Both the position numbers and the translations under genes were made by a program. From a virus: 64,000 bases of DNA. The notes below the pieces were generated by a model, which was given only the letters and a program-made list of their open reading frames with translations, was not told the origin of the DNA and made no database searches. Where the stretch lies: IMG/VR virus record IMGVR_UViG_3300024581_000835, positions 3,622-67,621 of that record. One strand, given 5' to 3'. Of this stretch, positions 27,058-63,261 are shown one piece after another; position 1 is the stretch's first letter, and every line of letters begins with the position of its first letter.

Positions 27058-27117
27058 TAAGTGCTTGATTTTGTTAGATTTTTTAAAAAAATTTTCTCTA
27101 ATAAAATCAATGACTTA
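27058..27117. promoter_or_regulatory. Pair of inverted IHF consensus sites
   Basis: AATCAAGCACTTA (- strand, 27058-27070) and AATCAATGACTTA (+ strand, 27105-27117). Confidence 0.6.
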
Positions 27118-27717
27118 CAGCACCCCTGGATCTGTGTGGTTATTTGCTTCAAATGCCCACGCTCTTTCCCTGCACCACCAGCACACTCCGCATCTAACAT
27201 CGGCAGTTTCTGTGCAACTGTGACTCAACTCCATCACAAAATCCAGGCCTTGCTCAATGGCTAATCCTACTGTGAAGTCTTTGGTGAGATCGAAAAAAGG
27301 TTGGCATGCTTTTTCACTGTCCACACGCAAACGCTCAAAATGGTTTGATTGCATGTGATCTGGCTGTGCTGTTTCAGCAGTAAACACCACATCATTTTCC
27401 ATCATGGCAACCTGCATGCCAGTCCACACTTGCTGGCTGTGATGTGCGTTACCATCTCCACGCATTTTGTGTTTGAGCTTGATGCCTAGGTTGGACTGAA
27501 TGGCTTTGCTCATGTTGTCAGCATGCGTGATGCTGTTATCAGGTCTTGGAGATGTATAAAGTGTGATTATGTTGTCTAGGTCATGGTCCTGCACTATTTT
27601 GCACAAACACCAAGTAAGTGTGCCACTGTCTAACCCACCGCTTAACATGATACCAACACGCTTGTTGTTTTCCAACACTGGCATCAACATGTCTTTGGTT
27701 TGTTCAAACAGTTTCAT
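27115..27717 (-). CDS. QueC-like adenine-nucleotide alpha hydrolase (PP-loop, Zn-binding Cys cluster)
   Basis: GIMLSGGLDS PP-loop and SHSCTE..RCGVCWWCRERAWAF. Confidence 0.7.
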   Translation of the reverse strand: MKLFEQTKDMLMPVLENNKRVGIMLSGGLDSGTLTWCLCKIVQDHDLDNIITLYTSPRPDNSITHADNMSKAIQSNLGIKLKHKMRGDGNAHHSQQVWTGMQVAMMENDVVFTAETAQPDHMQSNHFERLRVDSEKACQPFFDLTKDFTVGLAIEQGLDFVMELSHSCTETADVRCGVCWWCRERAWAFEANNHTDPGVL

Positions 27718-28400: not shown

Positions 28401-28733
28401 TTTTTTGAGGTTATTTTTGTAAATTTCTAACATTTTGTAGAGATCTTGCAGTTTTTTAGTGGCATACTCTGCAATCTCAGGTGTTTCCTCTGCTAATATC
28501 TGAATGTCAAAACTGGCATCATGTAGGTCGTTTAGACGCTTATCATTCATTGATTCCTCAAACGATTTCATATCCGGCAAGCCCAATGCAACCAACTCGT
28601 CCTCTGAAATAACAAAATGAGGCCCATCATCGATTGATACAGTGATATGATCAATAATTGCTTTGGCAATTAGTTCAGCACTCTTTGGTTTTTTATCTGG
28701 TTCTTTGCGTTTAAAGTCAATTACATCGCCCAT
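28395..28733 (-). CDS. Hypothetical protein
   Basis: Start MGDVIDF, coupled by TAATG to the HNH gene. Confidence 0.65.
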   Translation of the reverse strand: MGDVIDFKRKEPDKKPKSAELIAKAIIDHITVSIDDGPHFVISEDELVALGLPDMKSFEESMNDKRLNDLHDASFDIQILAEETPEIAEYATKKLQDLYKMLEIYKNNLKKG

Positions 28734-29236
28734 TAGATATAGTCCTCCCAACTAGGGTGTTTAATTTCAAACGGCAGTCCTTTTCGAATAGCAACCAATT
28801 CGTAATAAGTTGGCTTATAAGGTTCTCTGCTAGGTTTGATTAATTTACTTCCTTTGGTGGTGTTACACTTCATACAACTTGCTACAATGTTTTCCCAACA
28901 AGTTTTACCACCCATACTAACTGGATAAACATGATCCATAGTAACAGTTGTTGTGCTTACATTTGTATTACAATATTGACATTGAAATCTATCTCGCAAT
29001 GTAACATTGAATTTAGAGAATCTCGGATACTTGTTCTTTCGAACATACTCTTTGACCATCATTACTGCTGGCACACGAGTTTCCCAATTTGCACTGTGCA
29101 CAATCCAGTCATCGTACCACTCGAGCACAGTGACTCGATCCATGCACATGTATTTGATTGCTTCTTTCCAACTCACTGCACTTAGTGGCAAAACACTAAT
29201 GGGAGATGCATCCTTATTCAGCATCAAGGTGTCCAT
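28733..29236 (-). CDS. HNH endonuclease (McrA-like)
   Basis: RDRFQCQYC, TMDHVYPVSMGG and NIVASCMKCNTTKG. Confidence 0.9.
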   Translation of the reverse strand: MDTLMLNKDASPISVLPLSAVSWKEAIKYMCMDRVTVLEWYDDWIVHSANWETRVPAVMMVKEYVRKNKYPRFSKFNVTLRDRFQCQYCNTNVSTTTVTMDHVYPVSMGGKTCWENIVASCMKCNTTKGSKLIKPSREPYKPTYYELVAIRKGLPFEIKHPSWEDYI

Positions 29237-33088: not shown

Positions 33089-33991
33089 TTACTTGCCTAT
33101 AGCATTGCCGTATATGTGAACGTGCACACGGCTGGAATAATTATATCCTCTGGCAATGGCCTCATCGGCAATGTCTGCCTCAGTAATCTTAAGTCCTTCC
33201 AAGGTGCCGCCGACGCCCATGATCCACACAGGATAATCAACACCAGCATCACGGAATGCTTTTGTATGTTCTTCAACTTCACGCCAACTTTCCTCTGACC
33301 CATTTACCACGAACTTTAATTGTCCATGTGGTGTACATTTTGCATACTGTGCAACAAACTCTGGCTTGATAGCACGTTTAGACTTCTCACCTGCTGTGCT
33401 CCACAGTTTAGGCGATAGGCTCCAATACCATTCTCTGTCTGCTACATCTGTGAAATTGTTTTGTATGTAGTAAAACAAGTCGTCGCTTAGTTCACGAGTT
33501 CCGTTTGTTTCTACAGTTACATTGCGTGGGAAGTTATCTCTTCTCTTGAACTCTTCTAACACACCAATGATACCTGGCTGAGTAGGATGTAGTAAAGGTT
33601 CGCCACCGGTGAACACCATGTGTACCCACTGCTTGCTAACAGGATGTTGAAACTTACCGCCTGGTAACAGCGCAGTAAGCTCGTCTACACCTTGTTGCAC
33701 AGTTCTATTTGTGATCAAATGTCTGTACTTTCTACTCCAAGTATATGAACTATCACAGCCTTTGTCAAACACGGGCAAGTCACGTACATCAGTTATGTTA
33801 GAAATATCAATCTCTTCAAACGGTAATTCATATGTATCTGGATTAGTTGGATCTTCTTGTCCAAACCCATGACATTGTAAGTTACACAAAAAGAAGCGCA
33901 TCCACAAACTAGGAATGCCAATATACTGACCTTCCCCTTGTGCTGAGTAAAAAGTTTCGGAATACTTTATGATATCATTCTGAGAGTTCAT
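33089..33991 (-). CDS. queE: 7-carboxy-7-deazaguanine synthase (radical SAM)
   Basis: ETFYSAQGEG, CNLQC...CDS, FTGGEPLL, VETNGT and SPKL; linked to folE. Confidence 0.9.
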   Translation of the reverse strand: MNSQNDIIKYSETFYSAQGEGQYIGIPSLWMRFFLCNLQCHGFGQEDPTNPDTYELPFEEIDISNITDVRDLPVFDKGCDSSYTWSRKYRHLITNRTVQQGVDELTALLPGGKFQHPVSKQWVHMVFTGGEPLLHPTQPGIIGVLEEFKRRDNFPRNVTVETNGTRELSDDLFYYIQNNFTDVADREWYWSLSPKLWSTAGEKSKRAIKPEFVAQYAKCTPHGQLKFVVNGSEESWREVEEHTKAFRDAGVDYPVWIMGVGGTLEGLKITEADIADEAIARGYNYSSRVHVHIYGNAIGK

Positions 33992-34520
33992 TTATAGTGT
34001 CCTCATCTATTTTAAGCCATCTCAGTATCTGCCTTGCTAGCGTTGCATCAACCTTGTGAAACTTTTTTTCAAACTCGCCAAACACACATTCGTGTAGCTC
34101 GCTCATTTTATAATGATCTTGACCTGCTACAATATCAAAACAGCAGTCTGTGATAATTGATTCTAAGCCATATGCATGTTGAGTAGCAGGATTGTCTATC
34201 TCAGGGTGACTCAATCTGCCCAAGCTGAGTAAACTGAGAAACACCCAATCGCTGATGCCTGTTGTTTGTACATCAAACTCTCCATTGTTTTCGTACACAC
34301 TGAGAGTGATAAAATCATCTGATGTTATTTTTCTTACATCTGTCCATGCTTCTGCACATGCATACACTTCGTCCATGTTGATAGCAAACCTACGTTGTAT
34401 CAACCTGTGGTCGCCACCTATGCACAACTGGTCGCAAACATCTGCAATTGGTACACAGTTTCTGTCCAATACCAGTGTATTGCGAGGTCCTCTTGTGCTG
34501 ATCGCCACATTACTTGCCAC
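33975..34520 (-). CDS. Hypothetical protein with possible N-terminal DUF433-like HTH
   Basis: GTG start after AGGAG. VPIADVCDQLCIGGDHRLIQRRFAINMDEVYAC resembles the DUF433 pattern. Confidence 0.5.
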   Translation of the reverse strand: MASNVAISTRGPRNTLVLDRNCVPIADVCDQLCIGGDHRLIQRRFAINMDEVYACAEAWTDVRKITSDDFITLSVYENNGEFDVQTTGISDWVFLSLLSLGRLSHPEIDNPATQHAYGLESIITDCCFDIVAGQDHYKMSELHECVFGEFEKKFHKVDATLARQILRWLKIDEDTINELSE

Positions 34521-35199
34521 ACGCAAACTCCTGCTGTAGTTTGATGTTGTCAAAGAACTCTTTCTTTGTGCCAGGATCATCTTTAAACGCACCACGGAGT
34601 ACTGTTGTTTGTGTAAGTGAACTATGTGCCATAATACCGCGGTTCTCACAACAACCGTGTGTTGCTTGAATGTAAACACCTAAATGTTCTGCACCTGTTG
34701 CTTTTGCAATTTCACGTGCAATATCATTTGCAAGTTCTTCTTGCAGTGTACCACGTCTAGCACACCATTGTGCAATGCGTGTGTACTTGCTGAGTCCGAT
34801 TAGTTTCTCACTAGCAATAATACCAATGTATGCAGTACCTGCTACTGGCTGGTGATGGTGCGAACACATGCTTTTTAGTTCAGAACGTACTACTAGCATA
34901 CCCTCATAACGATCTTCGCTATCGTTAGGAAATGCCGTTGCACTAGGTGCATGATCATAACGTCCTGCCATGATTTCATTGAAGTACATTTTAGCAAGTC
35001 GACGTGCAGTGCCTTCCGAGTTAGGGTCATTGTGTCTATCAATGATTAGACAATCAAGCACCTGCTCAAACGCTTCAGTTGCTTCGTCGATAAGTTGATC
35101 TTTTTCGCCGTCCTGAATAAGGCGACTAATGTTATCACCAGCCCAGAACCGCTTATCAGCGTTCTTGCATCGCTGGATTATTTCTTCGTATTTTTTCAT
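34510..35199 (-). CDS. folE: GTP cyclohydrolase I
   Basis: SMCSHHHQP, GLSKYTR, QEEL, HGCCENRG and TTVLRG. Confidence 0.95.
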   Translation of the reverse strand: MKKYEEIIQRCKNADKRFWAGDNISRLIQDGEKDQLIDEATEAFEQVLDCLIIDRHNDPNSEGTARRLAKMYFNEIMAGRYDHAPSATAFPNDSEDRYEGMLVVRSELKSMCSHHHQPVAGTAYIGIIASEKLIGLSKYTRIAQWCARRGTLQEELANDIAREIAKATGAEHLGVYIQATHGCCENRGIMAHSSLTQTTVLRGAFKDDPGTKKEFFDNIKLQQEFACGK

Positions 35200-35235: not shown

Positions 35236-36210
35236 TTAGTTTTTATGATTCTTGCTCTCCCATGCCCAAGCATGACTAACAATATCATCGAGACCGTATT
35301 GTGGCTCCCAACCAAATGCTTCTCTGGCTTTGGTGTTGTCCGCCCATGTTTTAGGCGGATCGCCTGCTCTACGTTCTGCAATCGTGTGTGGTACTTGTTC
35401 GCCAGTGATGCGTTCAAATGCATCAATTACTTGTTTCACGCTGTTAGTACCGTTAGCACCAATGTTGAATATGCCGCTTTCGCCGCCGTCATCTAAGTAG
35501 TGCATAGCCGCCAAGTGTGCAGTAGCAATGTCAAACACATGAGTATAGTCTCTTTCACAAGTACCATCTGCTGTGTCGTAATCGTCGCCAAACACTTCGA
35601 ACGGCTCTTTATTTAGAATAGCTCTGCACACAATTGGAATAATGTGGCTAGCCGCTTCTTGATTATAACCGTGTTGCATTTCAGGATCAGCACCTGCCGC
35701 ATTGAAATATCTCAGTGCAGTATAGTTGATGTTGTGTGCAACGGCATAATCTTCTAGCATGTCTTCAACCATGCTCTTGGTTTTACCATATGGACTCATT
35801 GGAGCCTTAGGTGAGTTTTCTGTGGTAGGAAACTCAGTGATGTCACCGTACACGGAACTTGAGCTACTGAATATAAAGTTCTTAACACCGTTACGCACTG
35901 CACTGTTCAGCAGATAGATAGTGTTGCTTACATTGTTCCAGTAAAACACGTCAGGTTCTAACACACTGCGACCAACTTCGTGGTCCGCCGCAAAGTGCAT
36001 GATGGTATCAGGCTTTGTGAGCTTGATAATACCGTCAATCTGCTTGCTTTCAATGTCAAACGGATACAGTGTTACACCTGGTATGTCCTTTTTGCGTCTG
36101 TCAATATTGATCACATTGTGACCACTATCTACCAGCAAGCGACATACCATGCCGCCAATGTAACCACTACCGCCTGTTACTAAAACTGTTTTTTGATCTT
36201 GACTATTCAT
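35236..36210 (-). CDS. galE: UDP-glucose 4-epimerase
   Basis: TGGSGYIG, FSSSSSVYG, YGKTK (YxxxK), LRYFNAAGA and RDYTHV. Confidence 0.92.
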   Translation of the reverse strand: MNSQDQKTVLVTGGSGYIGGMVCRLLVDSGHNVINIDRRKKDIPGVTLYPFDIESKQIDGIIKLTKPDTIMHFAADHEVGRSVLEPDVFYWNNVSNTIYLLNSAVRNGVKNFIFSSSSSVYGDITEFPTTENSPKAPMSPYGKTKSMVEDMLEDYAVAHNINYTALRYFNAAGADPEMQHGYNQEAASHIIPIVCRAILNKEPFEVFGDDYDTADGTCERDYTHVFDIATAHLAAMHYLDDGGESGIFNIGANGTNSVKQVIDAFERITGEQVPHTIAERRAGDPPKTWADNTKAREAFGWEPQYGLDDIVSHAWAWESKNHKN

Positions 36211-37411
36211 ATTTTGCTCTTGCGACATGCTTACGGAAATCCCAATCATTCCTTGCCCATCGCTCTCCGTTACCTTCCAGTACATCTAGTGTACGGTCAA
36301 TTGTACCATTTTGGTATTCTGATATCTTACCAATATTATACTTTGATAAGTCATCGTTGTCAATGCTTTCAAACATTCTTTTTAACTTTTCTACAGCATC
36401 CTCAATACTCCAAGGTGTGTACAAATGGTTGTGATTGTTTGCAAACACTTCTGGAAAACTTCTGTAAGCAGGAAACAGTGTGAGTGTACCAAACGTGTCT
36501 GCCTCACTTACAGTGTTGCTAGTCCAATCTTGTAGTGCACAATTGAACAGCACTTGGCTGTCTGCTAACAGATTGTAGTAGTCATCCTTCTTCAATCCTG
36601 TGTACACTTTTAAGTTTGCTGTGCCCAGTCTGTTGTGTCCGCCTTCATATGCTAATGCTCTAGCAACGTAATCAGCACGGTTGCTTTTCAGTTCCGGGTG
36701 CCCACAGAACACAGCAAATTCTACTTCGGGGTCAATCTTGTAATACGCTTCTGCGAAGTCCATGTAAAAGTCTGGTTGCTTCTCATCGTCCCAACGTGCC
36801 GCAAATGCCACTCGCTTCTTACGATCCTTCAACGGTATGTTAGAGTCAATACGCCCTCTAACTTCGTTTTTACCAAACGGCAATCCTGTTACATAGATTG
36901 GTGCAAGCATACCTGCAATACGCAAGTGTGCCGCAAATTCTTCATTGGCTACACAAATACCACTTACCACATGATCGCACATTTCCTCATACTTTCGCAT
37001 CCAGTGAAACATGCCTTCTCTGATCAAGAAATCATCTGGGTCAGTGGTTTGTGCCAAGAAACGTAAAAACACCTTAGGTCTATATTCAGGTGGAGATTGG
37101 TCCATGATGTATGGCAAGCATTCAATACCGGGAGTGAACATGTCCTCATAGAAGATTACATCATCACTGGTAAGTTCACCATTCTTCATCATTTGAACCA
37201 AGTTCATTGTTTGGCTCAAACTGTAATACGAGCGACCATGAGCATCTAACACGCTACCTGTTACAATAGCCTTGCTGTTGTCGAGTTCTTGACCTGTGAT
37301 AATTTCATAGTCAATTCCACGACGTTTGAACACACGTTCGTTCCAGTCTTGCAGTTGTAAGGTATAGCGAGCCTCGTAACTCTCTAGTCCCATGTAAAAC
37401 AGTTTACGCAT
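36203..37411 (-). CDS. GT-B fold glycosyltransferase (GT4/phage DNA glucosyltransferase-like)
   Basis: AARWDDEKQP and FNCALQDWTSNTVSEADTFG..LFPAYRSFPE, which occupy the positions of the GT4 nucleotide-sugar-binding motifs. Confidence 0.75.
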   Translation of the reverse strand: MRKLFYMGLESYEARYTLQLQDWNERVFKRRGIDYEIITGQELDNSKAIVTGSVLDAHGRSYYSLSQTMNLVQMMKNGELTSDDVIFYEDMFTPGIECLPYIMDQSPPEYRPKVFLRFLAQTTDPDDFLIREGMFHWMRKYEEMCDHVVSGICVANEEFAAHLRIAGMLAPIYVTGLPFGKNEVRGRIDSNIPLKDRKKRVAFAARWDDEKQPDFYMDFAEAYYKIDPEVEFAVFCGHPELKSNRADYVARALAYEGGHNRLGTANLKVYTGLKKDDYYNLLADSQVLFNCALQDWTSNTVSEADTFGTLTLFPAYRSFPEVFANNHNHLYTPWSIEDAVEKLKRMFESIDNDDLSKYNIGKISEYQNGTIDRTLDVLEGNGERWARNDWDFRKHVARAKYE

Positions 37412-37802: not shown

Positions 37803-38177
37803 TTATCCTGTTACAGGATATTCCATTTCGCAACCGTTCTCATTATCTTCGGCTACTGAAATCTTTAACCAGCGATTGGGGTACATTGCTTGTACATGCT
37901 CCGCTAGTTCATCTGCAATCATTTCACAACTCTTGTAATCCAATTGCAATGTGTCTTGTGCATACAGTCTTTCCATCCATCTCTTGAACTGTATAAATTC
38001 TACGTCTCTGTCATCATGAAACACTTCAAGCCATACTTTAAAGTGAAAGATGTGTCTATGTGGATAACCTAAGAAACTTACATCATCCCAATCGCCCGTT
38101 GCTAGATTAGGATCCTCCAGTGCCGCTGGATACTTGTGTATCCCCTCCTTCTGAAACGTTACCCAAATGCTTCTCAT
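37803..38177 (-). CDS. T-fold QueD-like protein (LxxxHRHxF variant, DpdL-like)
   Basis: LGYPHRHIF, SCEMIA and EDNENG; lacks the QueD CxxxHGH motif. Confidence 0.75.
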   Translation of the reverse strand: MRSIWVTFQKEGIHKYPAALEDPNLATGDWDDVSFLGYPHRHIFHFKVWLEVFHDDRDVEFIQFKRWMERLYAQDTLQLDYKSCEMIADELAEHVQAMYPNRWLKISVAEDNENGCEMEYPVTG

Positions 38178-38458
38178 GTGTTGTCTCCGTCGAAGTACTT
38201 GACTTTGCTTTTATCAAATACGCCTGTCTTTGTTGTCGAAGTCGCATTTGACTTCTGTTGATTTGTGTTTGTCTCCACGCTCGCTTCATTGTTGGCATCT
38301 CCAATAGGCCTGTCGTAATAATCTGTTAAACCTGCACGTTGTCTTGCTTTCTTCTCGCTTACTAACACACTGCTCATGTATGCAAAAAAACCTGCAACTA
38401 CCACAAGAAGCAAACCAAAAATAAAATTAACTACTGTCATAAAGGCTTCAATCATCAT
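38174..38458 (-). CDS. Small membrane protein
   Basis: N-terminal TM helix. Confidence 0.6.
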   Translation of the reverse strand: MMIEAFMTVVNFIFGLLLVVVAGFFAYMSSVLVSEKKARQRAGLTDYYDRPIGDANNEASVETNTNQQKSNATSTTKTGVFDKSKVKYFDGDNT

Positions 38459-38642: not shown

Positions 38643-38903
38643 TTATACATTATTTTTAGATCCTGTCAACCTAAAATACTTGATCAAACCATACACGCTG
38701 AGAGAGAACCAAAACACTTCTATCACCATGCTTGCAAGGTTAAAATTATAAAGCAGGCTAACAGTTACCAATACTGCTACCACTGCGTTGTTAAAACTGT
38801 ACCAAAAGCCTTTGGGGTCTATGCGATCAAACTGCAATAAACCGTATGTGGTTATAAGTAATGCCACACCTAATAGCCCAACTGCATCTGGTAATCCTAT
38901 CAA
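38643..38903 (-). CDS. Three-TM membrane protein (CBU_0592-like)
   Basis: GLLGVALLITTYGLLQ...YSFNN...NLASMVIEVFW pattern. Confidence 0.6.
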   Translation of the reverse strand: MIGLPDAVGLLGVALLITTYGLLQFDRIDPKGFWYSFNNAVVAVLVTVSLLYNFNLASMVIEVFWFSLSVYGLIKYFRLTGSKNNV

Positions 38904-39406
38904 TCTATTACCTCATCTGACGTGTATTTGGTCCAATCAGTGAATGTGGACCTATCCATGAGATCGTGTAAACTATGACACCAAACACCAGGATTGGTTG
39001 CACGGAAATCTCTGTCGTCAATCTTTAACGTGGTGTTGTAGTTAAACTGTTTGATGTAAGGCAACTTAACACTGATCATAGGAATAAAGTTATCATACTC
39101 AGTTGGACCGCCTTCCAACAACTGCTCTGCATGCTTAACGTCTAAGTCAAGTGTTACCCAAATGTCATCACGCAAAAGATCAAGGATAAGATTATCCCAT
39201 TGTATCCACTCCTCGTTGCTTTGAGGATCAAAACTTTGATTTGCACCCAAGTAAATATGTGGACAAGCATTATTCAATGCTCTTGCAAGGATTTCTTCTT
39301 TTGGTTGTAGTCCAACCACAAACAGAGTTCGTTGCCCAAATGCAGGTGACTTTTCTACTTCGGTGCCAACAAAGTATGTGTTGTTTTCGTGTCCTTCTCT
39401 GTTCAT
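38900..39406 (-). CDS. Hypothetical protein in the dpd operon
   Basis: GTEVE..TLFVVG, HIYLGANQSF and KIDDRDFRATNPGVWCH. Confidence 0.75.
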   Translation of the reverse strand: MNREGHENNTYFVGTEVEKSPAFGQRTLFVVGLQPKEEILARALNNACPHIYLGANQSFDPQSNEEWIQWDNLILDLLRDDIWVTLDLDVKHAEQLLEGGPTEYDNFIPMISVKLPYIKQFNYNTTLKIDDRDFRATNPGVWCHSLHDLMDRSTFTDWTKYTSDEVID

Positions 39407-39407
39407 A

Positions 39408-39596
39408 TTACCACCTAGTGTAACCTAGCCTTTCTAGATACTGCTGTTTGGTAACAGCCTCATCAATGTTTATATTTAGGCAAGGCATGGTTGCGTCATT
39501 GAAAATTTCCGTCACCTTTACAGTTTCATCATCATTGACTTGAAAGTGCACAATATGCCCTTCGCACTCGTAATGCCCTGACCAAATAGTTTTCAT
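39408..39596 (-). CDS. Small hypothetical protein
   Basis: ATGA-coupled ORF. Confidence 0.55.
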   Translation of the reverse strand: MKTIWSGHYECEGHIVHFQVNDDETVKVTEIFNDATMPCLNINIDEAVTKQQYLERLGYTRW

Positions 39597-39910
39597 AGAT
39601 CCGCCTCTTTAACAAACACCCCATCAACCATCTTGCCTTTGCGATCTTTGATGTCATTGTATGCAACTTCCAGGCACTCAGTTAAACTGAGGTTGTTGCG
39701 TTCAGCAATGTTAATCAGCACAACCATCATGTCACCGATATCGTCCTTGATGTCACGCTCTTTGCAGATGTTGTCGCTGAGTTCACCTGCTTCTTGAATC
39801 AATTTAGCAAACTGTGTTTTGTCGTCACTGCCTTGAATCAAGTTACGATCATAGTGCCACTGCTTTACCATTTCGCATAGTACAATTAATCTTTCGCCTT
39901 CAACAGTCAT
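39593..39910 (-). CDS. mazG: MazG-like NTP pyrophosphohydrolase
   Basis: KLIQEAGEL, DDIGDMMVVL, AYNDIKDRKG. Confidence 0.85.
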   Translation of the reverse strand: MTVEGERLIVLCEMVKQWHYDRNLIQGSDDKTQFAKLIQEAGELSDNICKERDIKDDIGDMMVVLINIAERNNLSLTECLEVAYNDIKDRKGKMVDGVFVKEADL

Positions 39911-41476
39911 TTAAAATCCCTCAAAGAATGTTCCAATTACTTCTTCTTTAACACCGTCATCCTCGCCACCCATACTAAAGTGTGCAAGCATGTCTGCATG
40001 CTTTTTGATAAGTTCTCTGGCATTTGTGCATGCAGGGTCTAACACAGTTTCCACAAAGTTCTGGAAGTACAGAATATTAACAGGCACATAAGGAGATACC
40101 TCTTGTGCTTTACTGCTCTTCTTCTCTGGCTTCCTCCAATTATTGAAGTCTACTGCTTCTCTGTAACGCTCAACATCTGCCAGTCTATTTGCTTCCTGCA
40201 CAGCATCAATGTGGTTGAACACACTGTGACCCATGTAGTACAAATAACTTTGTGTATCCCAACTGGTGCTGTCACGCTCTGCAAACAGTTGATTACCTTG
40301 TGCATCCAACTTGGGTTTGCCTTCCTTGTCTACCAACGGCTGACCTTCTGCTAACTTCATATTACCATTCTTGTCCAAGTCGCCTGCTGACATAGGGCAT
40401 AAGTCACCCATTGTGAGTCTGCTCATCACAGGCGAATGCCCAAACGGTGCAGGCAAGTCACTGTCCTTGAATGACTGCTGATCAAATGCACGATCCATAA
40501 AGTAGCCAAACTTACCAGGCTCAAAGAAGTTGTGTGCATAGGTTTGACCATATGCAGTGTTAACAAATGGCGATGCGGCATCGAAGCTCAACGTAATGTT
40601 TGGGTTATCATGCAATCTCAACTGTCTCTGTATAGCAGTTAGGAAACAGGCCCATTGCAGTTTACCGGTACCTAAGAAGTGTATCCAATCTTTGCCTTCC
40701 AGCAAACCATCTTGTCTTAGATCTAATAGACGGTTCAGCACACAACTTAGGTCTTTCATGTTGATACCAGCAAAGGCGTAACCTTCGAGTGCCCTGCTTG
40801 CATCGCCGTAACCTTCAGCAACAAACGAAGGATCACTAAAGCATTTAACAGAGTCATACCACTGTTTGCTAGTTGCTTCGTCTGTGCCACTTAGCACATT
40901 GAGAAACTTTGTTGCACCCGGTACACGGTTACGCACAAAGTAATCCAAGTTCAATAAACTGATGTCTAGTGTGTCTTCAAATCTTGTCAAGCCTGTTTTT
41001 TTGCTCAGTGGTTCTACTGCGGCAAAGGCTGGAATGTCTAATGTCATACTCCAGTCTGCTGTGTGTTCTAACCAACGTAGAATACTTTCGCACATCTTTG
41101 TACGAGCAGGATCGCTTGGATCCTTTGCGTTTGTCCAATCCAGTTTAAGTACACCTGTAGCGATCTGGAATCCACCGGAGTCGCCTAAGATAACTTTTAC
41201 AGTATTACGATCACGCTCTTGAATCATAGGCTCAGCATCGTGGCTTTTGTCGATGTCGAGGTGTGCGTGACCTGCTGAATATAATCCGTAAGGATAATGA
41301 AAGTAACTATTTTGTGCTTGTAGGAAATCCAAGCCCTCATTACCGTGTTCGAAACCTGCAGGAACTCGACTTTCTGCTTTTTTCTTGTTGCAGATTTTGT
41401 CCAACTGCTTAGTATAGAAACTACTGATCGCAGGGAGATAAACTGCGTAGTCTCTTTGTCTTTTGCCTAAATCCAT
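39911..41476 (-). CDS. dpdA: DNA deazaguanine transglycosylase (TGT-fold, DpdA-like)
   Basis: ILGDSGGFQI, MTLDIP, IHFLGTG and SFDAASPF; co-located with folE and queE. Confidence 0.85.
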   Translation of the reverse strand: MDLGKRQRDYAVYLPAISSFYTKQLDKICNKKKAESRVPAGFEHGNEGLDFLQAQNSYFHYPYGLYSAGHAHLDIDKSHDAEPMIQERDRNTVKVILGDSGGFQIATGVLKLDWTNAKDPSDPARTKMCESILRWLEHTADWSMTLDIPAFAAVEPLSKKTGLTRFEDTLDISLLNLDYFVRNRVPGATKFLNVLSGTDEATSKQWYDSVKCFSDPSFVAEGYGDASRALEGYAFAGINMKDLSCVLNRLLDLRQDGLLEGKDWIHFLGTGKLQWACFLTAIQRQLRLHDNPNITLSFDAASPFVNTAYGQTYAHNFFEPGKFGYFMDRAFDQQSFKDSDLPAPFGHSPVMSRLTMGDLCPMSAGDLDKNGNMKLAEGQPLVDKEGKPKLDAQGNQLFAERDSTSWDTQSYLYYMGHSVFNHIDAVQEANRLADVERYREAVDFNNWRKPEKKSSKAQEVSPYVPVNILYFQNFVETVLDPACTNARELIKKHADMLAHFSMGGEDDGVKEEVIGTFFEGF

Positions 41477-41479
41477 ATA

Positions 41480-42235
41480 TTAGTTCTTCGCAGGTAGTAA
41501 GTATGTGTATTCACCAATGCCGCTGTCTACTTTGATCTGTAGCAAGCCTTTTGCATTGAAACTCATAACAATGTTTGCATTGTCGCCTAAACGTAAAATC
41601 TTTAATGCTACATCCAGTGGCCAATGAAACTCGTGTGTCATTGAACCTTCAACTCCTTCTGCAATCAACACTTTGGTTCTGTCGCCGCCGTTGTCGCCAA
41701 TGTAGAAGTACAATTTGTTGTCCTCAGTACGTGGCGAGAACGTGCTCTCAAAAGCGCCTAACACGCTGTTAAAATAACCTAACTCCTTGAGATTCTTTGC
41801 ACTAGGCACAATATTCACATCAAACTCTGCGCCTTTGAATGTGATGTCTTTGAGCTGTTGATTAACTACATCTGCTAACATAAAACGATAGTGTGCATCT
41901 GTGCCTTCTTGGCTAACAAACTTTACTTCAACTGGTACATCGGCGCCATTACGTTCCTGTGTTACTACTTCTACTGTTGCATCCTCATCATCGAATCCTG
42001 GAAAACGCAAGTAGCCGTCTAACACGCTCATGCGACTTAGTCCAACTGTTGATTCAACAAAGTCAGGAACTGGGTTAATAGTTTTGCCTTTGAAGATCAC
42101 AGTTTTATCTGCATCCACAGTTTCAATAGTGGTCTCTTCCACTGTGCCTTTTACTTTGACCATCTCAAAGATACCCAAACTGTGCGTGTGTTTGAGAACA
42201 TCTTTCAGTGTGTCTTTGATATAATTGTTAGCCAT
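41480..42235 (-). CDS. DNA polymerase sliding clamp (gp45/PCNA-like)
   Basis: About 250 aa, all-beta/alpha pattern, ends GEYTYLLPA; lies beside polB. Confidence 0.7.
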   Translation of the reverse strand: MANNYIKDTLKDVLKHTHSLGIFEMVKVKGTVEETTIETVDADKTVIFKGKTINPVPDFVESTVGLSRMSVLDGYLRFPGFDDEDATVEVVTQERNGADVPVEVKFVSQEGTDAHYRFMLADVVNQQLKDITFKGAEFDVNIVPSAKNLKELGYFNSVLGAFESTFSPRTEDNKLYFYIGDNGGDRTKVLIAEGVEGSMTHEFHWPLDVALKILRLGDNANIVMSFNAKGLLQIKVDSGIGEYTYLLPAKN

Positions 42236-42573: not shown

Positions 42574-45255
42574 TTAAAAATCAAAAAACTCTTGCAGTGC
42601 TTCACTCTCGTTCATCCTATCCAAGTCCCAATTCATTGCACCCAGCACATTCTTTATCTTTTTGTTGAGTACGCTTTCTTCCATTGCTTCATCATCAAAC
42701 GGCATCTGCTTGAACCAGTCTGGCAGTTGTAGTTCATCAGTGGGGTACGCTATGCTGGCATAGCCCATTGCATTACTTTTGAGCTTGCACACAATCACTT
42801 TCATACCGTCAGTGATAGTCATGCTGTAGTTGTCGCTCATTGCTTGTTTGATTTCGTTCCAGTTGATGCTTGCTCTAACATGCCCAGGTATCATGTTGTT
42901 CTCGGGTGCTTGGTCTGTAAGTCGCTTCAACTTATAATTTCGAGTTTCTACACGTCGTTGTTTTGCCAACTTTTCGCCGTACATGGTGAGATTGTTTACA
43001 CGCTTGGGCATGCCTTTTAACCAAGGATTCATACCTTGGAATTCTTTCTTAAAGTCTTTGATCTTTTGTAGTACATCGCTCTCGCTCACACCTTCTAGTG
43101 CATTGTCTAATATCTCTTCTAAGAAGTCTTGTATAAACTCAGGAGTGTCTGAACGCTTGATGTCCATGCCCATGATCTTGAGCTTGCCGCCTTCTGGTTG
43201 CCAGCCTTCTAGATCCAACACTTTGATGGCATAACGCTTCTTGGTAATAAAAAGTCCTGCTCGTCCAACTACTTCTCTGCCTGCTTTCATCACTGCACCC
43301 ATATCCTTGGGCACGTTGAATTTATCCTTCAGCATCTGTGGGAAGGTGTCACTGACAGTATCTGAAATATGATCGTACAGTGCTACTGCACTGTCTAAGT
43401 CTAATTGTTGTCCGGGCTCCAGGGCAGGGGTTGCTGTGAAATACACTGAGTCTGTATCACCATATATGATACATTCCCCCGTATGGTCATAGGAGCCGGT
43501 AAGCATTCTGTTTGTTTCGGCACCCATGTGCTTAGTAATGGCTCTTCCTGTAAGTGTTGTGGATTGACCAATCCGCTTATCGAAAAAACGGCAGCCAGGA
43601 TTAAGGATAGCACCGTACAAACTGTTAAGGTTAATCTTTTTAACCAACTGTCGTTTGTCCCAAAACGCTTTGTCCGCATCAGTTGTTGCATCTTTTTTCT
43701 TTGCTTGTAAGTCTTTACGCTCCGCATACCATCTCTCCAATAGTCCGGGCACAATGCCCTGGAAGTCTGTTTTAAAGATAGTACCGTTAGCACTGATATT
43801 CCAAGGTTGCCCTGAATTAAAAATTAAATTATAGACGTCTGCTCCAGTTACTTCTACTGTAGTACCGTCCTCCATGTCCAAATGCATAGTGTGGTTAACG
43901 TCCTTGCTCATAACCATTTCGTATTCATTTGAACCAAACTTGCCTAACCATGCATCTGCAAATGACTTCTTCTCCAGTGTCATTTTATTTTTGACTTCTT
44001 CCTCTGTGTAGTCCTGACGCAGTTGCCCCACAATAGTCTCTGGAGCCATATTAAGTGCACGGAACACACTTGGATACAGACTGTTCAAGTCCATCGAGCC
44101 CACCCATTCGTGGAATCCTTTTTTGGGGAAGGCAACATAAGCACCTGCGGCCTGTGTGTTACCACGCTCTTCACGTTTGCGATCTGGTACAACATAACCA
44201 CGTCTGTGACTTTCATTGATGATTGCTTGTTCTGTGGTCGCCACTGCACCCATTGTGGTTGGAAGTAGCACAGTGTTGTCGTGTGCAATAGTGTTAGCAA
44301 GATCAATAAACTGTAGTTTCTTATCCAGTTTATCCAACAGCATGACGTCTTGAATGTTGTATTCTAAGAACTTCTTGAAATCATGATTGTACAGTTTATC
44401 CAGTGATCCTTCATAGGCTACTTTCTTTTCGCCTACTTCCATCTCACCAATGTAGTCTAGTCTGTAACTGTGTCGTTCTTCATAGTTGTATTTGCGATAC
44501 AGTTGCATATAGTCCAAGTGCACACGACCTAAGATGTCATAGCTTTGCCGTTCTGCACCAAACGCTTCGTATGTGCGCTCTCTGGGAAACTGATCCCACA
44601 AACACATTCTGCGAGTTTCGCCTTTGCCCATCACTTTGATGATGCGGTTAATGGTGTAAGGAATATCATAGCCCTCACTGTTCCAGCCACTCAGTATGTC
44701 AGCATCTTCAATTAGTGTGAGGAATGTGTTCAGCATTTCTTTTTCAGACTTGAACAGTATTACCTCAGGCATGTCTGCAACAATAGCTTCGGCTTGTTCC
44801 CAACTTAGAGTCTTGGGAGGCACAGCCAAACACACCATTGCATCCATCCACTGCAAGTACACACCAATAGATGTAATCTCCATGAATGCATCTTCAGGTG
44901 AACTGTAACCACGTTCTGGATCAAAGTCCACCTCGATGTCGAAAAATGCTGTTTGTAGTATCGGAGGTTCAGCACCGTTGTAGTGCTTGGCTATTGTTTT
45001 GTTTAGTGGCTTGATGTCGCTTTCGAATGTTTTGTTGCCTTTGTTGATAGCAACATTCTTACGAAACTCTTTGACGTTTTTACACCGCACTTCTTGTACA
45101 GCTTCGCCATAGATGCTTTTGTGTGATCCTCTGGGATCAGCAATGTAAAAATTGTATTCGGGCTTGTGGTCTACTAGAATGCGTTTACCATCTACACGCT
45201 CAACCACTCGAATCAGATCGAGTTTCTTATCGTAGATTGCATCTACATAACTCAT
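42574..45255 (-). CDS. polB: Family B DNA polymerase (gp43-like)
   Basis: Exo motifs FFDIEV, GWNSEGYDIPY and YNIQDV; pol motifs DLNSLYP, KINLNSLYG and YGDTDS. No intein. Confidence 0.97.
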   Translation of the reverse strand: MSYVDAIYDKKLDLIRVVERVDGKRILVDHKPEYNFYIADPRGSHKSIYGEAVQEVRCKNVKEFRKNVAINKGNKTFESDIKPLNKTIAKHYNGAEPPILQTAFFDIEVDFDPERGYSSPEDAFMEITSIGVYLQWMDAMVCLAVPPKTLSWEQAEAIVADMPEVILFKSEKEMLNTFLTLIEDADILSGWNSEGYDIPYTINRIIKVMGKGETRRMCLWDQFPRERTYEAFGAERQSYDILGRVHLDYMQLYRKYNYEERHSYRLDYIGEMEVGEKKVAYEGSLDKLYNHDFKKFLEYNIQDVMLLDKLDKKLQFIDLANTIAHDNTVLLPTTMGAVATTEQAIINESHRRGYVVPDRKREERGNTQAAGAYVAFPKKGFHEWVGSMDLNSLYPSVFRALNMAPETIVGQLRQDYTEEEVKNKMTLEKKSFADAWLGKFGSNEYEMVMSKDVNHTMHLDMEDGTTVEVTGADVYNLIFNSGQPWNISANGTIFKTDFQGIVPGLLERWYAERKDLQAKKKDATTDADKAFWDKRQLVKKINLNSLYGAILNPGCRFFDKRIGQSTTLTGRAITKHMGAETNRMLTGSYDHTGECIIYGDTDSVYFTATPALEPGQQLDLDSAVALYDHISDTVSDTFPQMLKDKFNVPKDMGAVMKAGREVVGRAGLFITKKRYAIKVLDLEGWQPEGGKLKIMGMDIKRSDTPEFIQDFLEEILDNALEGVSESDVLQKIKDFKKEFQGMNPWLKGMPKRVNNLTMYGEKLAKQRRVETRNYKLKRLTDQAPENNMIPGHVRASINWNEIKQAMSDNYSMTITDGMKVIVCKLKSNAMGYASIAYPTDELQLPDWFKQMPFDDEAMEESVLNKKIKNVLGAMNWDLDRMNESEALQEFFDF

Positions 45256-58569: not shown

Positions 58570-61500
58570 TTAAACCCAGTTGTAGTGTACAGATATTGTA
58601 CCAGAACCTGCTGTTGTAGTAGATGATGTAATACCATCGCTCTGCATGAACTGTACCTGTATGGCTTGTCCTGCTGTAATAGCCTGCTCGCCATCAAGTT
58701 CAACACTGTATGTACCTGCTGTTGCCGCATCAGCGTCATCGGCCGCTACTAGCGTAGTGCCTGAACCACCGTTCTCTTTAACAAGGATATGGTTGAAAGA
58801 ACCACCACTAAATGCTGTGCCAATCTTGACAACAACCTTAGTTGCGTAGTATGTTCTGCCTGCAACGTTTGGCACTGCTGGAGTGTCAATTGTTGTAGAA
58901 CCGTTTGTTAAAGTTGCTCTGACTAATAAACCGTCTGGAGCATTAGAGTCAACGTATGCTTTGACTGATTGCTGTGTAGGTACAAGTGTAGCACTATCAC
59001 TAGCCATGTTGTCTTCGTCAACGAAGCCAGTTACTGTGATTGAGCCGTCACTTAAATCACCAAATGTAACAGTACCCGATGCAGTAACGTTGGCACCGCT
59101 AAGGTTGCCTGTTGTTGTTACATCGCCTGCTAAGTTTGTGATATTACCTGTGTACGCACCAATTGCTGAGTTTGCTCTAGCAGTTGTGTAGTACAAGTTA
59201 GTACCTTCTGACAAGTCAGTTGTGCTGTGGTTGCTGATATCGCTAACTGTACCAGTTACATCACCGATAAAGTTTGCAGTTGCAGTAACGTTATTAAATG
59301 TTACATCTGAAGATGTAGCAACGTCCTGACCAATGCTGATGTTACCAGATGCAATAGTTACGCCAGTACCACCTGAGAAGTGAGCTCTTACTTCACTAGC
59401 ACTTGGGCCAGTGTAAGTGATTTCACCTGTAGCACTGTTGTAGCTCATTGAGCCATCGCCACCTGCGTCTGTTACAGAAATTGCATTTCTAGCTCTTGCA
59501 TCAGTGTAATACAAGTTAGTTGCACCTTCTGCTAAATCATCAGTGTCATGGTTGCTTAAACTGCTAACTGTACCAGTTACATCACCAGTTAAGTCACCAA
59601 CAAATGTTGTAGCGTTAACTGTTTCGTTACCAAATGTCCACTCGCTTGTAGCACCATCATAGATGATCTGCTTCATGCTACCGCCAACATTGGCTTCAAA
59701 ACCTACGTCAGTACCTGTTGTACCGTCGCTGTTTACGCGGAAGATTGGGTCACTTGCTTGAACAGTTGTTGATTCAACAACAGTTTGTGTACCTTGAACT
59801 GTTAAGTTACCAGTAATAACAGCGTCACCATTAACATTAACTGTAGATGATGTGATATCATCCGATGTGAATGTACCAGTTACTGTTAAGTTTGCAATGC
59901 TTGCGCCATCTACGATACCAACTTCAACACTGTTGTTAGTGATTGTTGTCTCAACCTGACCGGCTGTACCAACAATGCTTAATGTCTCACCACCCAAGAT
60001 TTGGTCTGATGAACCATTGTCACCGTCAACGTTAAAGCCTGTAGCAATAGTAGAAGTGCTTACACCAGTGATACGACCTTGCTGGTCTACTGTGATATTT
60101 GGAACTGCTGTAGCACTACCGTATGATCCAGGTGTTACTGCTGTATCGTCGAGATCAATTTGACCTGCTGTGATACTGATACCTGTTCCACCAGTAAAGT
60201 GTGCTCTAACTTCGCTAGCACTTGGACCAGTGTAAGCAATTACACCAGTTGATGCGTTGTATGATAATGCACCGTCGCCACCGTTGTCAGTTACTGAGAT
60301 CGCCTGTCTAGCTCTACCGTCTGTGAAGTACAGGTTAGTTGAACCTTCTGCTAAATCATCAGTGTCGTGGTTTGAAATGTCACTAACTTGACCAGTAACA
60401 TCACCAGTTAAGTCACCGCTGAATGTTGTTGAACTTACGCTTGATAAGCCGCTTAATGAGCTATCAAGTGATACTGACAAGCCTTGTGCATTTGCTGAAG
60501 TAGTAATGTTGTTACCACCTGTGATAGCAAATGTCTGGCTGTCTAAGTCAACTGAACCTGTGCCGCTGTCACCTGAGAAGTCTAAATCTTCTGCTGTAAC
60601 TTTAGCATCAACGTATGCTTTAACAGATTGCTGTGTTGGAACTAATGTATCGCTGTCGCTAGCCATGTTGTCTTCGTCAACAAAGCCTGCGATAGTGATT
60701 GAACCATCACTTAAACCACCAAACGATAATGTACCGCTGAAGTCACCATCTACTGCTGAAACTTCGCCAGTTGCATCAAAGTTTGCCGCGCTTACGTTAC
60801 CACTGAAGTCACCAGTAGTTGCACCGCTTAAAGCGCCTGAACTTAATGTTGCTGTACCGTCTGATAGTGATCCACCTTGTACTGCACCACTGAATGTTGC
60901 GCTTACACCTGATGTGATTCTACCAGAAGCAATACTTAATGTGCTATCTGTTAATGTTGCGAATGTTGCAGTACCTGAACCAGATACGTTAACTGCGCCT
61001 GTTAAAGAACCACTGCTTAATGTAGCAACGCCATCAGTTAATGAACCACCTTCAATAGCACCCGAAGCATCAACACTTGTTAAAGTGATGTCGCCGTCTA
61101 AGTTAACTGTTAAAGTATCGGTTGCACTTGTTGCAGTATTAATGTTTGTACCACCTGCGATACGGATAGTGTCACCATTGCCTAAATCTTGATCAACACC
61201 ACTATCGCCTGCTAACGTCATACCAGTTGAGATTGAAGCAGTGCTGGCAGAAGTGATACGACCTTGTGCATCAACAGTAATTACTGGAATAGCTGTGGTT
61301 GAACCATAGTTGCCTGCTGTTACTGCTGTATCAGCAAGATCAATAGTGCCTGATGTATAATCAATACCAGTGCCACCCACCAAGTATGCGTCCATTGCCG
61401 CATTACCACGTGCTGTTGTCCAGTAGAGGTTTGAACCTTCTGCTAAGTCACCAGTGTCATGGTTGCTGATGTCGCTAACAGTACCTGTAACATCACCAGT

Positions 61501-63261
61501 TAAGTCACCAGTTACATCACCAGTTACATTACCTGTCAAGTTACCAGTTACATCACCTGTAACATCACCAGTTAAGTTACCAGTTACGTCACCTGTTACA
61601 TTACCTGTAACATCACCAGTTAAGTCACCAGTTACGTCACCTGTGAATGTTGCATTTGAACCGTCTGTTCCGTTTTCGAGGATCTTCTGACCTAATGAAG
61701 AGTAAATGTCACCAGTTACATCACCAGTTAAGTCACCTGTTACATTACCAGTTACATCACCTGTAACGTCACCAGTTAAGTTACCTGTTACGTCACCAGT
61801 TACGTCACCAGTTAAGTCGCCTTCAAATGTGCTTGCTACAAATGTTTCAGAGCCTACGCTCCACTTGCTACCTGCGCCTAAGTAAACGATCTGCTTCATT
61901 GAGCCACCAACGTTGGCTTCAAAACCTACGTCTGTGCCTGTAGTACCATCACTGTTTACACGGAAGATTGGATCTGCCGCTTGTACTGTGGTGGATTCAA
62001 CTGTTGTCTGAGTACCTTGCACAATCAAGTTACCTGTGATGATTGCGTCACCGTTAACACTAACCTGAGAAGATGTAATGTCGTCCGATGTGAATGTACC
62101 AGTTACAGTCAAGTTTGCTATAGTAGCACCGTCAGCAATACCAATTTCTAAGTGGTTGTCTGTTACGGTTGTTTCGATCTGGCCTGCTGTACCTTCAACA
62201 GTAAGTGTTTCACCACCTACGATCACGTCAGTGTTACCTGCGTCACCTGCTAAGTTGAAACCAGATGTGATTGTTACAGTGCTTGCTGATGTTACACGAC
62301 CTTTAGAGTCGATTGTAAGCACTGGAGTTGCAACATTACTACCATATACGCCAGCAGTTACGCCTGAAGCCGCTAAAGTAGTTGTAATTGTTGCAGTGTC
62401 GCCTGCGTTTTGGAATGTAGCAGAACCAGTAGCATCGCCACTTAGTCCAACTGTTACTGCGCTAGAAAGTGCATCTGCATCATCTGCTGTACCAGTTAAG
62501 TCACCTGTTACGTTACCAGTTACATCACCAGTTAAGTTACCAGTTACATCACCAGTTACATCACCAGTTAAGTTACCAGTTACATCACCTGTTAAGTTAC
62601 CAGTTACATCACCTGTTACGTTGCCTGTCAAGTTACCAGTTACATCGCCTGTGACATCACCTGTTAAGTTACCAGTTACATCACCTGTTACGTTGCCTGT
62701 CAAGTTACCAGTTACATCGCCTGTGACATCACCTGTAACATCACCAGTTAAGTTACCAGTGATACCAGAATTAACAGCTAGTGTAGTAAACGTGCCTGCG
62801 CCAGGTGTGCTTGCACCTATTGTTACGCCGTTTAAAGCGCCGCCAGTAAGATTTACATTACTGAAGTCTTGAGTTGCTATAGAGCCTAAGCCCAAATTAG
62901 TTCTTGCACCGCTTGCTGTTGTAGCACCAGTACCACCGTTGCTTAGTGAAAGTGTTCCACTTACGAAACTAGCATTTCCTAAATCAACTGTGCTTGCTGT
63001 TGCAACACCATTTGTAAACGATACAATACCTGTAGAGCTTGAGAAATCTTGTCCAGTACCGCCGTACTGTGTGCCGATTTCCGTGCCTGTCCAGTTACCA
63101 GCAACAACACTACCAAAACGAATGTTTTCTAATGTTGTACCATCTGATTGGGTTAAGTCAAATCTACCATTTGCAGAATCATACTTGAGCTTACCACCGC
63201 TCTTACCCATTTGGACGTCAGCCGCAAGACCTTTTATACCAAAGTTCTTAATGTCAGCCAT
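58570..63261 (-). CDS. Long tail-fibre-like structural protein with G-(D/N)-(V/L)-T repeats and duplicated modules
   Basis: 1563 aa, Gly/Thr/Ser/Asp-rich, tetrapeptide tracts and internally duplicated segments. Confidence 0.8.
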   Translation of the reverse strand: MADIKNFGIKGLAADVQMGKSGGKLKYDSANGRFDLTQSDGTTLENIRFGSVVAGNWTGTEIGTQYGGTGQDFSSSTGIVSFTNGVATASTVDLGNASFVSGTLSLSNGGTGATTASGARTNLGLGSIATQDFSNVNLTGGALNGVTIGASTPGAGTFTTLAVNSGITGNLTGDVTGDVTGDVTGNLTGNVTGDVTGNLTGDVTGDVTGNLTGNVTGDVTGNLTGDVTGNLTGDVTGDVTGNLTGDVTGNVTGDLTGTADDADALSSAVTVGLSGDATGSATFQNAGDTATITTTLAASGVTAGVYGSNVATPVLTIDSKGRVTSASTVTITSGFNLAGDAGNTDVIVGGETLTVEGTAGQIETTVTDNHLEIGIADGATIANLTVTGTFTSDDITSSQVSVNGDAIITGNLIVQGTQTTVESTTVQAADPIFRVNSDGTTGTDVGFEANVGGSMKQIVYLGAGSKWSVGSETFVASTFEGDLTGDVTGDVTGNLTGDVTGDVTGNVTGDLTGDVTGDIYSSLGQKILENGTDGSNATFTGDVTGDLTGDVTGNVTGDVTGNLTGDVTGDVTGNLTGNVTGDVTGDLTGDVTGTVSDISNHDTGDLAEGSNLYWTTARGNAAMDAYLVGGTGIDYTSGTIDLADTAVTAGNYGSTTAIPVITVDAQGRITSASTASISTGMTLAGDSGVDQDLGNGDTIRIAGGTNINTATSATDTLTVNLDGDITLTSVDASGAIEGGSLTDGVATLSSGSLTGAVNVSGSGTATFATLTDSTLSIASGRITSGVSATFSGAVQGGSLSDGTATLSSGALSGATTGDFSGNVSAANFDATGEVSAVDGDFSGTLSFGGLSDGSITIAGFVDEDNMASDSDTLVPTQQSVKAYVDAKVTAEDLDFSGDSGTGSVDLDSQTFAITGGNNITTSANAQGLSVSLDSSLSGLSSVSSTTFSGDLTGDVTGQVSDISNHDTDDLAEGSTNLYFTDGRARQAISVTDNGGDGALSYNASTGVIAYTGPSASEVRAHFTGGTGISITAGQIDLDDTAVTPGSYGSATAVPNITVDQQGRITGVSTSTIATGFNVDGDNGSSDQILGGETLSIVGTAGQVETTITNNSVEVGIVDGASIANLTVTGTFTSDDITSSTVNVNGDAVITGNLTVQGTQTVVESTTVQASDPIFRVNSDGTTGTDVGFEANVGGSMKQIIYDGATSEWTFGNETVNATTFVGDLTGDVTGTVSSLSNHDTDDLAEGATNLYYTDARARNAISVTDAGGDGSMSYNSATGEITYTGPSASEVRAHFSGGTGVTIASGNISIGQDVATSSDVTFNNVTATANFIGDVTGTVSDISNHSTTDLSEGTNLYYTTARANSAIGAYTGNITNLAGDVTTTGNLSGANVTASGTVTFGDLSDGSITVTGFVDEDNMASDSATLVPTQQSVKAYVDSNAPDGLLVRATLTNGSTTIDTPAVPNVAGRTYYATKVVVKIGTAFSGGSFNHILVKENGGSGTTLVAADDADAATAGTYSVELDGEQAITAGQAIQVQFMQSDGITSSTTTAGSGTISVHYNWV
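61480..62765 (-). repeat. Three tracts of 12-bp degenerate tandem repeats encoding GDVT/GNLT/GNVT
   Basis: Units such as accagttacatc and acctgttaagtt at about 61480-61645, 61710-61820 and 62485-62765. Confidence 0.9.

Follow-up and report, generated by a model that had tools for sequence, protein, structure and literature searches.

The minus-strand open reading frame (ORF) at positions 37803..38177 of a viral DNA stretch of 64,000 nucleotides (positions 3,622 to 67,621 of IMG/VR record IMGVR_UViG_3300024581_000835; hereafter the window) encodes a 124-amino-acid (aa) T-fold protein, P0001, that by its sequence and modeled structure is a genuine member of DpdL, an already described family of QueD paralogs. 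The DpdL-bearing locus is a 7-deazaguanine DNA-modification cluster, and we consider it probable that DpdL works within this cluster in a pathway whose QueD is encoded off the contig. CheckV estimated the 70,146-bp IMG/VR contig that holds the window to be ~20% complete, implying a phage genome of roughly 350 kb, and a DpdL homolog 92% identical to P0001 (P0062) is encoded on a contig of 346 kb. The source is an uncultured marine jumbo phage of ~350 kb. A megablast search with the 8.5-kb cluster gave no match among isolate phages; 80 related viral contigs or loci were compared for synteny and gene presence.

Searches of P0001 against curated families gave little. P0001 had no Pfam match, to PF01242 included, at a threshold as lax as E≤10, and no NCBIfam match, phmmer against PDB sequences returned only noise, and the only PHROGs match was to the unnamed phrog_17812 (E 9e-33). 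A tblastn search of 50,697 phage records matched 28 records, with homologs in Sinorhizobium phage Phosso (66% identity, E 1e-47), PA5oct-like Pseudomonas jumbo phages (60%, E 5e-42), Acidovorax phage ACP17 (ASD50405.1; 56%, E 3e-40), and Cellulophaga phage phiST (CGPG_00067; 34%, E 8e-8). The matches to the ACP17 and phiST proteins each span >90% of the length, and these are the two proteins that were named DpdL by Hutinet et al. (NAR 2023; PMC10516641), who described LxxxHRHxF in place of the QueD motif CxxxHGH as the mark of DpdL. A preliminary description of this DNA, made from the sequence alone, had taken LxxxHRHxF as marking DpdL; this agrees with the published definition, and P0001 is homologous to both founding DpdL proteins. 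The gene itself is an ordinary addition to a family that received its name in 2023. This family is large, with at least 1,969 clusters at 50% identity (E≤1e-3) and at least 8,000 candidate 90%-identity clusters scored, all at E≤1e-3, with TARA and other marine samples contributing many of its members.

The three motifs noted in the preliminary description (LGYPHRHIF, SCE, and EDNENG, with no Cys in the His motif) were all read in P0001. The His motif, F-LGYPHRHIF-HF, corresponds to L36xxxH40-R41-H42-x-F44, the second motif is Y-K-SCE-M (S83-C84-E85), and the third is A-EDNENG-C (E110 to G115). In an alignment of 33 homologs reaching down to 40% identity, residues conserved at ≥90% were H14, A19, V33, L36, H40, R41, H42, F44, V52, R57, E60, S83, C84, E85, E110, D111, and G115. 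Because the motifs are conserved across 33 diverse homologs, they are near-invariant motifs of the family and not chance strings. Alignment of P0001 with nine DpdL proteins of isolated phages left G12, H14, L36, H40, H42, F44, H54, R57, E60, S83, C84, E85, and E110 invariant. The DpdL homologs of PA5oct (L004:9989-10366) and Aeromonas phage Ahp1 (L096:4971-5363) differ from P0001 in reading HFHYF rather than HRHxF, indicating that not every DpdL has the Arg given in the published motif.

Structural modeling placed P0001 beside QueD and PTPS. An AlphaFold2 model built from the 33-sequence alignment had a mean predicted local distance difference test (pLDDT) score of 95.6, and among PDB structures Foldseek ranked Pyrococcus PTPS (2dj6), E. 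coli QueD (4ntk), and their relatives highest for this model, with a probability of 1.0 and template modeling (TM) scores of 0.66 to 0.70; the next matches were other T-fold enzymes, namely dihydroneopterin aldolase and QueF-like proteins. A DpdL profile searched against PDB sequences ranked the same Pyrococcus PTPS first, at an E value (0.12) that is not significant alone, and the alignment set HRH on HGH, SCE on TTE(N), and EDxENG on EGxxNG. When the profile was compared by hhalign with 11 phage QueD proteins (84% probability, E 7.7e-6), Leu36 fell on the Cys of the phage QueD motif CxxxHG[HY], HRH on HG[HY], and SCE on the G[CA]E/TAE motif. P0001, with its PTPS-like fold, keeps the zinc-binding His triad of QueD as H14, H40, and H42, and E85 of SCE and E110 of EDNENG align with conserved Glu positions of QueD and PTPS. 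P0001 thus resembles E. coli QueD and the PTPS-I family (PF01242, EC 4.1.2.50) in its T-fold (TM ~0.7), its three zinc His residues, a TxE-like Glu, and a Glu near the C terminus, but differs from QueD in having Leu for the motif Cys and Arg for the motif Gly and in being invisible to the Pfam model. In ≥90% of the DpdL family, Leu takes the place of the catalytic Cys that QueD carries four residues ahead of its first motif His. These alignments and the model show DpdL to be a paralog of QueD (6-carboxytetrahydropterin synthase) in which the metal-binding residues and the aligned Glu residues are kept and the catalytic Cys is lost to Leu36.

The preliminary description had allowed that this protein might instead be a variant QueD. 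In that case, P0001 would itself perform the 6-carboxytetrahydropterin (CPH4) synthase step, with Cys84 of SCE standing in for the motif Cys, and no other QueD would be needed. The T-fold closest to PTPS and QueD, the retained zinc His and substrate-anchoring Glu residues, a different and nearly invariant family Cys (C84), and a 70-kb contig without QueD would all be in keeping with this possibility. However, a separate QueD of Pfam grade is present in all nine complete genomes that carry DpdL, and some marine relatives have a QueD in the same cluster as DpdL. PF01242 does not detect P0001 at E≤10, yet it finds the QueD proteins of the nine DpdL phages. Furthermore, Cys84 aligns with the TTE/TAE ring-binding motif of PTPS, beside the conserved Glu, while Leu36 holds the catalytic position, and the motif Cys is reported as essential, a QueD without it being inactive (PMC10516641). 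We therefore regard P0001 as a very improbable QueD. That the complete phage genomes with DpdL all have a genuine QueD as well indicates that DpdL is a paralog with a different role.

The genes around DpdL run on one strand in the order DNA polymerase, clamp, DpdA-like protein, MazG, a 168-aa protein, DpdL, a GT-B-like protein, an epimerase, FolE, and QueE. The order polymerase, clamp, DpdA-like, 168-aa protein, DpdL, (glycosyltransferase and epimerase), FolE, and QueE is kept in most of the 80 related contigs. All of these genes lie on the minus strand. The DNA polymerase (42574-45255) and the clamp-like protein (41480-42235) are followed by a 521-aa DpdA-like (TGT-like) putative DNA transglycosylase (39911..41476), which is named from its motifs and synteny, and by a MazG-like nucleotide pyrophosphohydrolase (39593..39910; PF03819, 23.2 bits against a cutoff of 22); in phiST, a MazG-like gene adjoins DpdL. 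The 168-aa protein (38900..39406), a constant neighbor of DpdL, comes next. P0001 is an intact ORF whose ATG shares an ATGA junction with the stop codon of the ORF directly upstream (38174-38458), the kind of overlap expected within an operon. Downstream of DpdL lie a 402-aa GT-B-like glycosyltransferase (36203..37411; a weak PF00534 match, E 7e-4, under the cutoff), a GalE-like NAD-dependent sugar-nucleotide epimerase/dehydratase (35236..36285; PF01370, E 1.4e-55), FolE, the GTP cyclohydrolase I (34510..35199; PF01227, E 3.3e-39), and a 300-aa QueE-like radical SAM enzyme, the 7-carboxy-7-deazaguanine (CDG) synthase (33089..33991), which matched phrog_2076 (“QueE-like radical SAM domain”; E 4.6e-51) and, weakly, the NCBIfam QueE models. 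Read by eye, the QueE homolog has the sequence CNLQCHGF with the next Cys ~38 residues on, an apparent insertion in the radical-SAM cluster-binding motif.

Several features of the 521-aa protein point to a DpdA-like enzyme. It is 51% identical to PA5oct gp168, and a weak BLASTP match links it, via DSGGFQ/DSGGLQ and HFLGxG, to the 424-aa protein encoded upstream of DpdL in ACP17. DSGGFQ is the TGT active-site motif, and among 33 sequences of this protein D99-S-G-G-(F)-Q104, a mid-barrel Asp (D147), H266xLG, and a later Asp (D299) are invariant. The protein and its 33-sequence profile found no match among PDB sequences, the protein has no Pfam match, a PF01702 search of the contig found nothing, and a Pfam scan of the ACP17, PA5oct, and X1 counterparts gave nothing.

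The preliminary description had stated that no canonical QueD is present. For the 70,146-bp contig, ~20% of the genome, this is true: PF01242, run at E≤10 over all six frames of the contig, found no QueD, and tblastn with six phage QueD proteins found nothing in the window. With a contig only ~20% complete, its absence there says little about the phage. QueD, detected by PF01242 above the curated cutoff, is present in 9/9 complete DpdL-carrying phage genomes tested, at 0.1 to 222 kb from DpdL: at ~0.1 kb in BCSR5, ~2 kb in phiST, ~3 kb in RHph_I1_18, ~4 kb in ACP17, ~13 kb in Bakedbeans, ~52 kb in Ahp1, ~55 kb in PA5oct (which has two QueD copies), ~98 kb in X1, and ~222 kb in Phosso. In complete genomes, DpdL never replaces QueD. 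Among the 80 related loci, five have QueD ≤10 kb from DpdL, some inside the same cluster. Two of five long related contigs encode QueD upstream of DpdL on the same strand, at 62 kb (G003) and 97 kb (G005). The window is collinear with these long relatives: a 1,563-aa marker gene (58570-63261) lies upstream of DpdL by 20 to 25 kb here, 17 to 20 kb in G001, and 29 to 32 kb in G005. Because the contig ends ~28 kb upstream of DpdL, a QueD at the position seen in G003 or G005 would fall beyond it.

These observations bear on a suggestion in the preliminary description that QueD is borrowed from the host, in which case the phage would truly lack QueD and draw CPH4 from the queuosine pathway of its host. 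Many bacteria encode QueD, and the 70-kb contig has none, nor does the nearest long relative, G001, across ~97 kb. We nevertheless find this reading improbable, considering that the contig covers only about one-fifth of the genome, that all nine complete DpdL phages carry QueD, even far from the cluster, and that two collinear relatives have it 62 to 97 kb upstream. Instead, the phage very probably encodes its own QueD in the ~80% of the genome beyond the contig, the apparent lack of QueD stemming from the incomplete contig.

Two further observations were made on QueD. A small minus-strand ORF (33975-34400) in the slot between FolE and QueE, which holds QueD in some relatives, is present in eight of the 80 related loci; it was considered as a cryptic QueD and rejected, with hhalign probabilities of 0.2% to QueD and 0.3% to DpdL. 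The QueD proteins of DpdL phages mostly read H-C-x3-H-G-Y rather than CxxxHGH (L005-L009, L090, and L091; ORFs in L018, L031, L073, and L078), and the two PA5oct copies are one of each motif type (CxxxHGY and CxxxHGH). Due to the CxxxHGY form, a motif search by eye would miss these proteins; a profile search does not.

In the pathway that we favor, FolE would convert GTP to 7,8-dihydroneopterin triphosphate (H2NTP), H2NTP would be turned into CPH4 by a canonical QueD whose gene most probably lies off the contig, and QueE would make CDG. DpdL would then act on the free deazaguanine base at its 7-substituent, and the DpdA-like transglycosylase would swap the product for guanine in phage DNA, leading to protection from restriction. 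The published proposal is that DpdL, assisted by Zn, decarboxylates CDG as the free base to give 7-deazaguanine, which a DpdA of altered specificity then inserts (PMC10516641). It is based on the complete replacement of deoxyguanosine by 2'-deoxy-7-deazaguanosine (dDG) in phiST-type phages, with DpdL as the best leftover candidate for this step (PMC10516641). The His triad, the Glu positions, and a fusion of DpdL to a YhhQ-type domain described below fit an action of DpdL on a free 2-amino-4-oxo-deazapurine base. YhhQ is a transporter of preQ0. As for decarboxylation of CDG by P0001, we give it an even chance.

A number of points weigh against this pathway. Coexpression of dpdL and dpdA from either phiST or ACP17 in E. 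coli gave no dDG (PMC10516641), and the decarboxylase activity of DpdL is only predicted, a literature search having found no later validation. The phiST type, the only type in which dDG has been measured, has neither the GT-B-like nor the 168-aa gene found with DpdL here. There is also a QueC-family gene at 10 kb from DpdL (27115..27717, minus strand), whereas the published DpdL phages are without QueC. The assignment of the 521-aa protein as DpdA-like is drawn only from motifs and synteny. Finally, QueD itself was not found for this phage in a search that covered the 70-kb contig, and G001, the nearest long relative (88% DpdL identity), has no QueD in the 62 kb upstream of DpdL or in the 35 kb downstream of it. 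Given the GT-B-like and 168-aa partners and the nearby QueC-like gene, the final base may possibly be plain 7-deazaguanine or another product.

The 168-aa gene is the most constant neighbor of DpdL in this phage group, being found in 65/80 related loci, mostly ~0.6 kb upstream of DpdL. Some loci show an overlap between this gene and the start of DpdL, and in one representative (P0188) the two proteins are fused. Homologs occur in PA5oct (49% identity) and inside the ACP17 7-deazaguanine cluster (ASD50402.1, E 5e-12). An AlphaFold2 model of the 168-aa protein had a pLDDT of 90, and Foldseek found nothing for this model at E≤0.001; the best VIA-align Z score was 6.2, among generic alpha/beta folds. 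A likeness to the QueE partial barrel (Z 5.6 to 5.8) was within noise, the ESM Atlas gave no usable match, and relationships to phiST CGPG_00066 or to the Phosso “glycosylase” were rejected on comparison.

Homologs of the GT-B-like protein are encoded beside DpdL in Phosso, PA5oct (gp167), and ACP17 (ASD50404), with E values of 1e-11 to 2e-15; the coordinates listed for homologs in isolates are L001:7972-9000, L004:8843-9904, and L003:10366-11457. Another (55% identity) lies 37 nucleotides downstream of DpdL in Synechococcus phage BUCT-ZZ01, and in BCSR5 one lies 3 kb from DpdL. Among the related loci, 37/80 have the GT-B-like gene, and the epimerase co-occurs in 37/80. The GT-B-like protein had no match among PDB sequences. 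This gene was not included in the published reconstitution with dpdL and dpdA (PMC10516641).

We also observed DpdL fused to several other domains. In P0198, DpdL is joined to a PP-loop domain of the PAPS-reductase family, with 40% identity to a gene in the DpdL cluster of Xanthomonas phage X1. At least seven representative clusters (P0140, P0167, P0176, P0202, P0236, P0240, and P0266) have DpdL fused to LmbE/PIG-L-like domains of the deacetylase type with an H.DDE motif; no LmbE/PIG-L gene was found in the contig or in the 80 related loci. In P0220, the partner is a YhhQ/Vut_1 transporter-like domain (PF02592, 31.6 bits against a cutoff of 27.2). In a separate observation, gp176 of Vibrio phage Bakedbeans (383 aa, L098:4215-5366) has DpdL at its C terminus.

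These partners raise an alternative in which DpdL is not simply a CDG decarboxylase and, together with the 168-aa and GT-B-like proteins (elsewhere with PP-loop or LmbE-like domains), builds an elaborate 7-deazaguanine, perhaps glycosylated or amide linked, so that dDG would not be the final base. Its support comes from the GT-B-like gene being ≤3 kb from DpdL in ACP17, PA5oct, Phosso, BUCT-ZZ01, BCSR5, and 37/80 marine loci, from the 168-aa gene adjoining DpdL in most loci, fused to it in P0188, and present in ACP17 and PA5oct, and from the PP-loop fusion (P0198) and the LmbE-like fusions in at least seven clusters. Furthermore, the ACP17 dpdL and dpdA pair alone made no dDG, and natural products provide precedents for both a glycosyltransferase acting on a 7-deazapurine and QueC-type amide synthetases acting on CDG. 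In contrast, phiST makes dDG with DpdL in the absence of GT-B-like and 168-aa partners, and roughly half of the DpdL-bearing related loci are without the glycosyltransferase and epimerase, which are in that sense accessory. On balance, we view this alternative as possible but doubtful. Tentatively, a module of the DpdA-like, 168-aa, and GT-B-like proteins, sometimes with the epimerase, might make a 7-deazaguanine in DNA that possibly bears a sugar. That such a module would extend across abundant marine jumbo phages as well as ACP17, PA5oct-like phages, Phosso, BUCT-ZZ01, and BCSR5 is similarly a tentative suggestion. If true, the absent partners would explain the failure of dpdL and dpdA alone to give dDG in E. 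coli.

The view in the preliminary description that any glycosylation would need unusual chemistry was speculation. In huimycin and dapiramicin the sugar is on the 2-amino group; for huimycin this, if so, gives the N2 glycosylation option raised in that description a precedent. The glycosyltransferase HuiG of the huimycin pathway uses UDP-GlcNAc on a 7-deazapurine (preprint), and QueC homologs of the roseomycin pathway are amide synthetases acting on adenylated CDG (preprint). In the tubercidin pathway, a UbiD-family decarboxylase removes the C7 carboxyl (preprint). Removal of this carboxyl from a CDG-derived intermediate is the same chemistry as that proposed for DpdL, although UbiD-family enzymes have an unrelated fold and cofactor and serve secondary metabolism, not DNA modification.

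Returning to the favored pathway, the systems of phiST and ACP17 are close comparisons. Their DpdL proteins share full-length homology, LxxxHRHxF, the conserved His and Glu residues with SCE, and the T-fold with P0001, and their neighborhoods likewise contain a divergent DpdA together with FolE, QueE, and MazG. In ACP17, where ASD50403 is the DpdA-like gene, the cluster includes the 168-aa and GT-B-like genes as well. The cluster here differs from that of phiST in its extra epimerase, GT-B-like, and 168-aa genes, and from both in that the contig fragment has no QueD and that a QueC-like gene lies 10 kb off. PA5oct, with the Wroclawvirus 7-deazaguanine cluster, is also a jumbo phage and has a DpdL (gp166; 60% identical), a DpdA-like protein (gp168; 51%), and a GT-B-like protein (gp167) whose gene adjoins DpdL, but its 168-aa homolog lies 27 kb away and is not adjacent. 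In keeping with the favored pathway, PA5oct DNA resists restriction enzymes with G-containing sites (PMC12191111). DpdL is a very large family for which the chemistry is a proposal, and its recurrent partners and fusions provide a testable lead. Because the cultured phages ACP17, PA5oct, and BUCT-ZZ01 carry the partner genes, the identity of the base and the role of DpdL are directly testable, with a bearing on why therapeutic phages of the PA5oct type withstand restriction and on why END nucleases sense them.

The QueC-like gene at 27115..27717 encodes a divergent 200-aa PP-loop ATPase of the QueC family (PF06508, 34 bits against a cutoff of 22) with SGGLDS and a C-terminal Cx7CxxCxxC, and scores 32 with TIGR00364 against an equivalog cutoff of 150. 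Among isolates, it matched only a protein of Ralstonia phage RsoM2USA, in which the neighborhood was uninformative. It is absent from four long relatives, indicating that it is accessory and of uncertain relevance; it could function in amidation or conjugation of CDG or could have no role in DNA modification. We also observed an HNH endonuclease gene (PF14279/PF01844) at 28733-29236 on the minus strand, with the QueC-like gene on one side and the block of replication and modification genes on the other.

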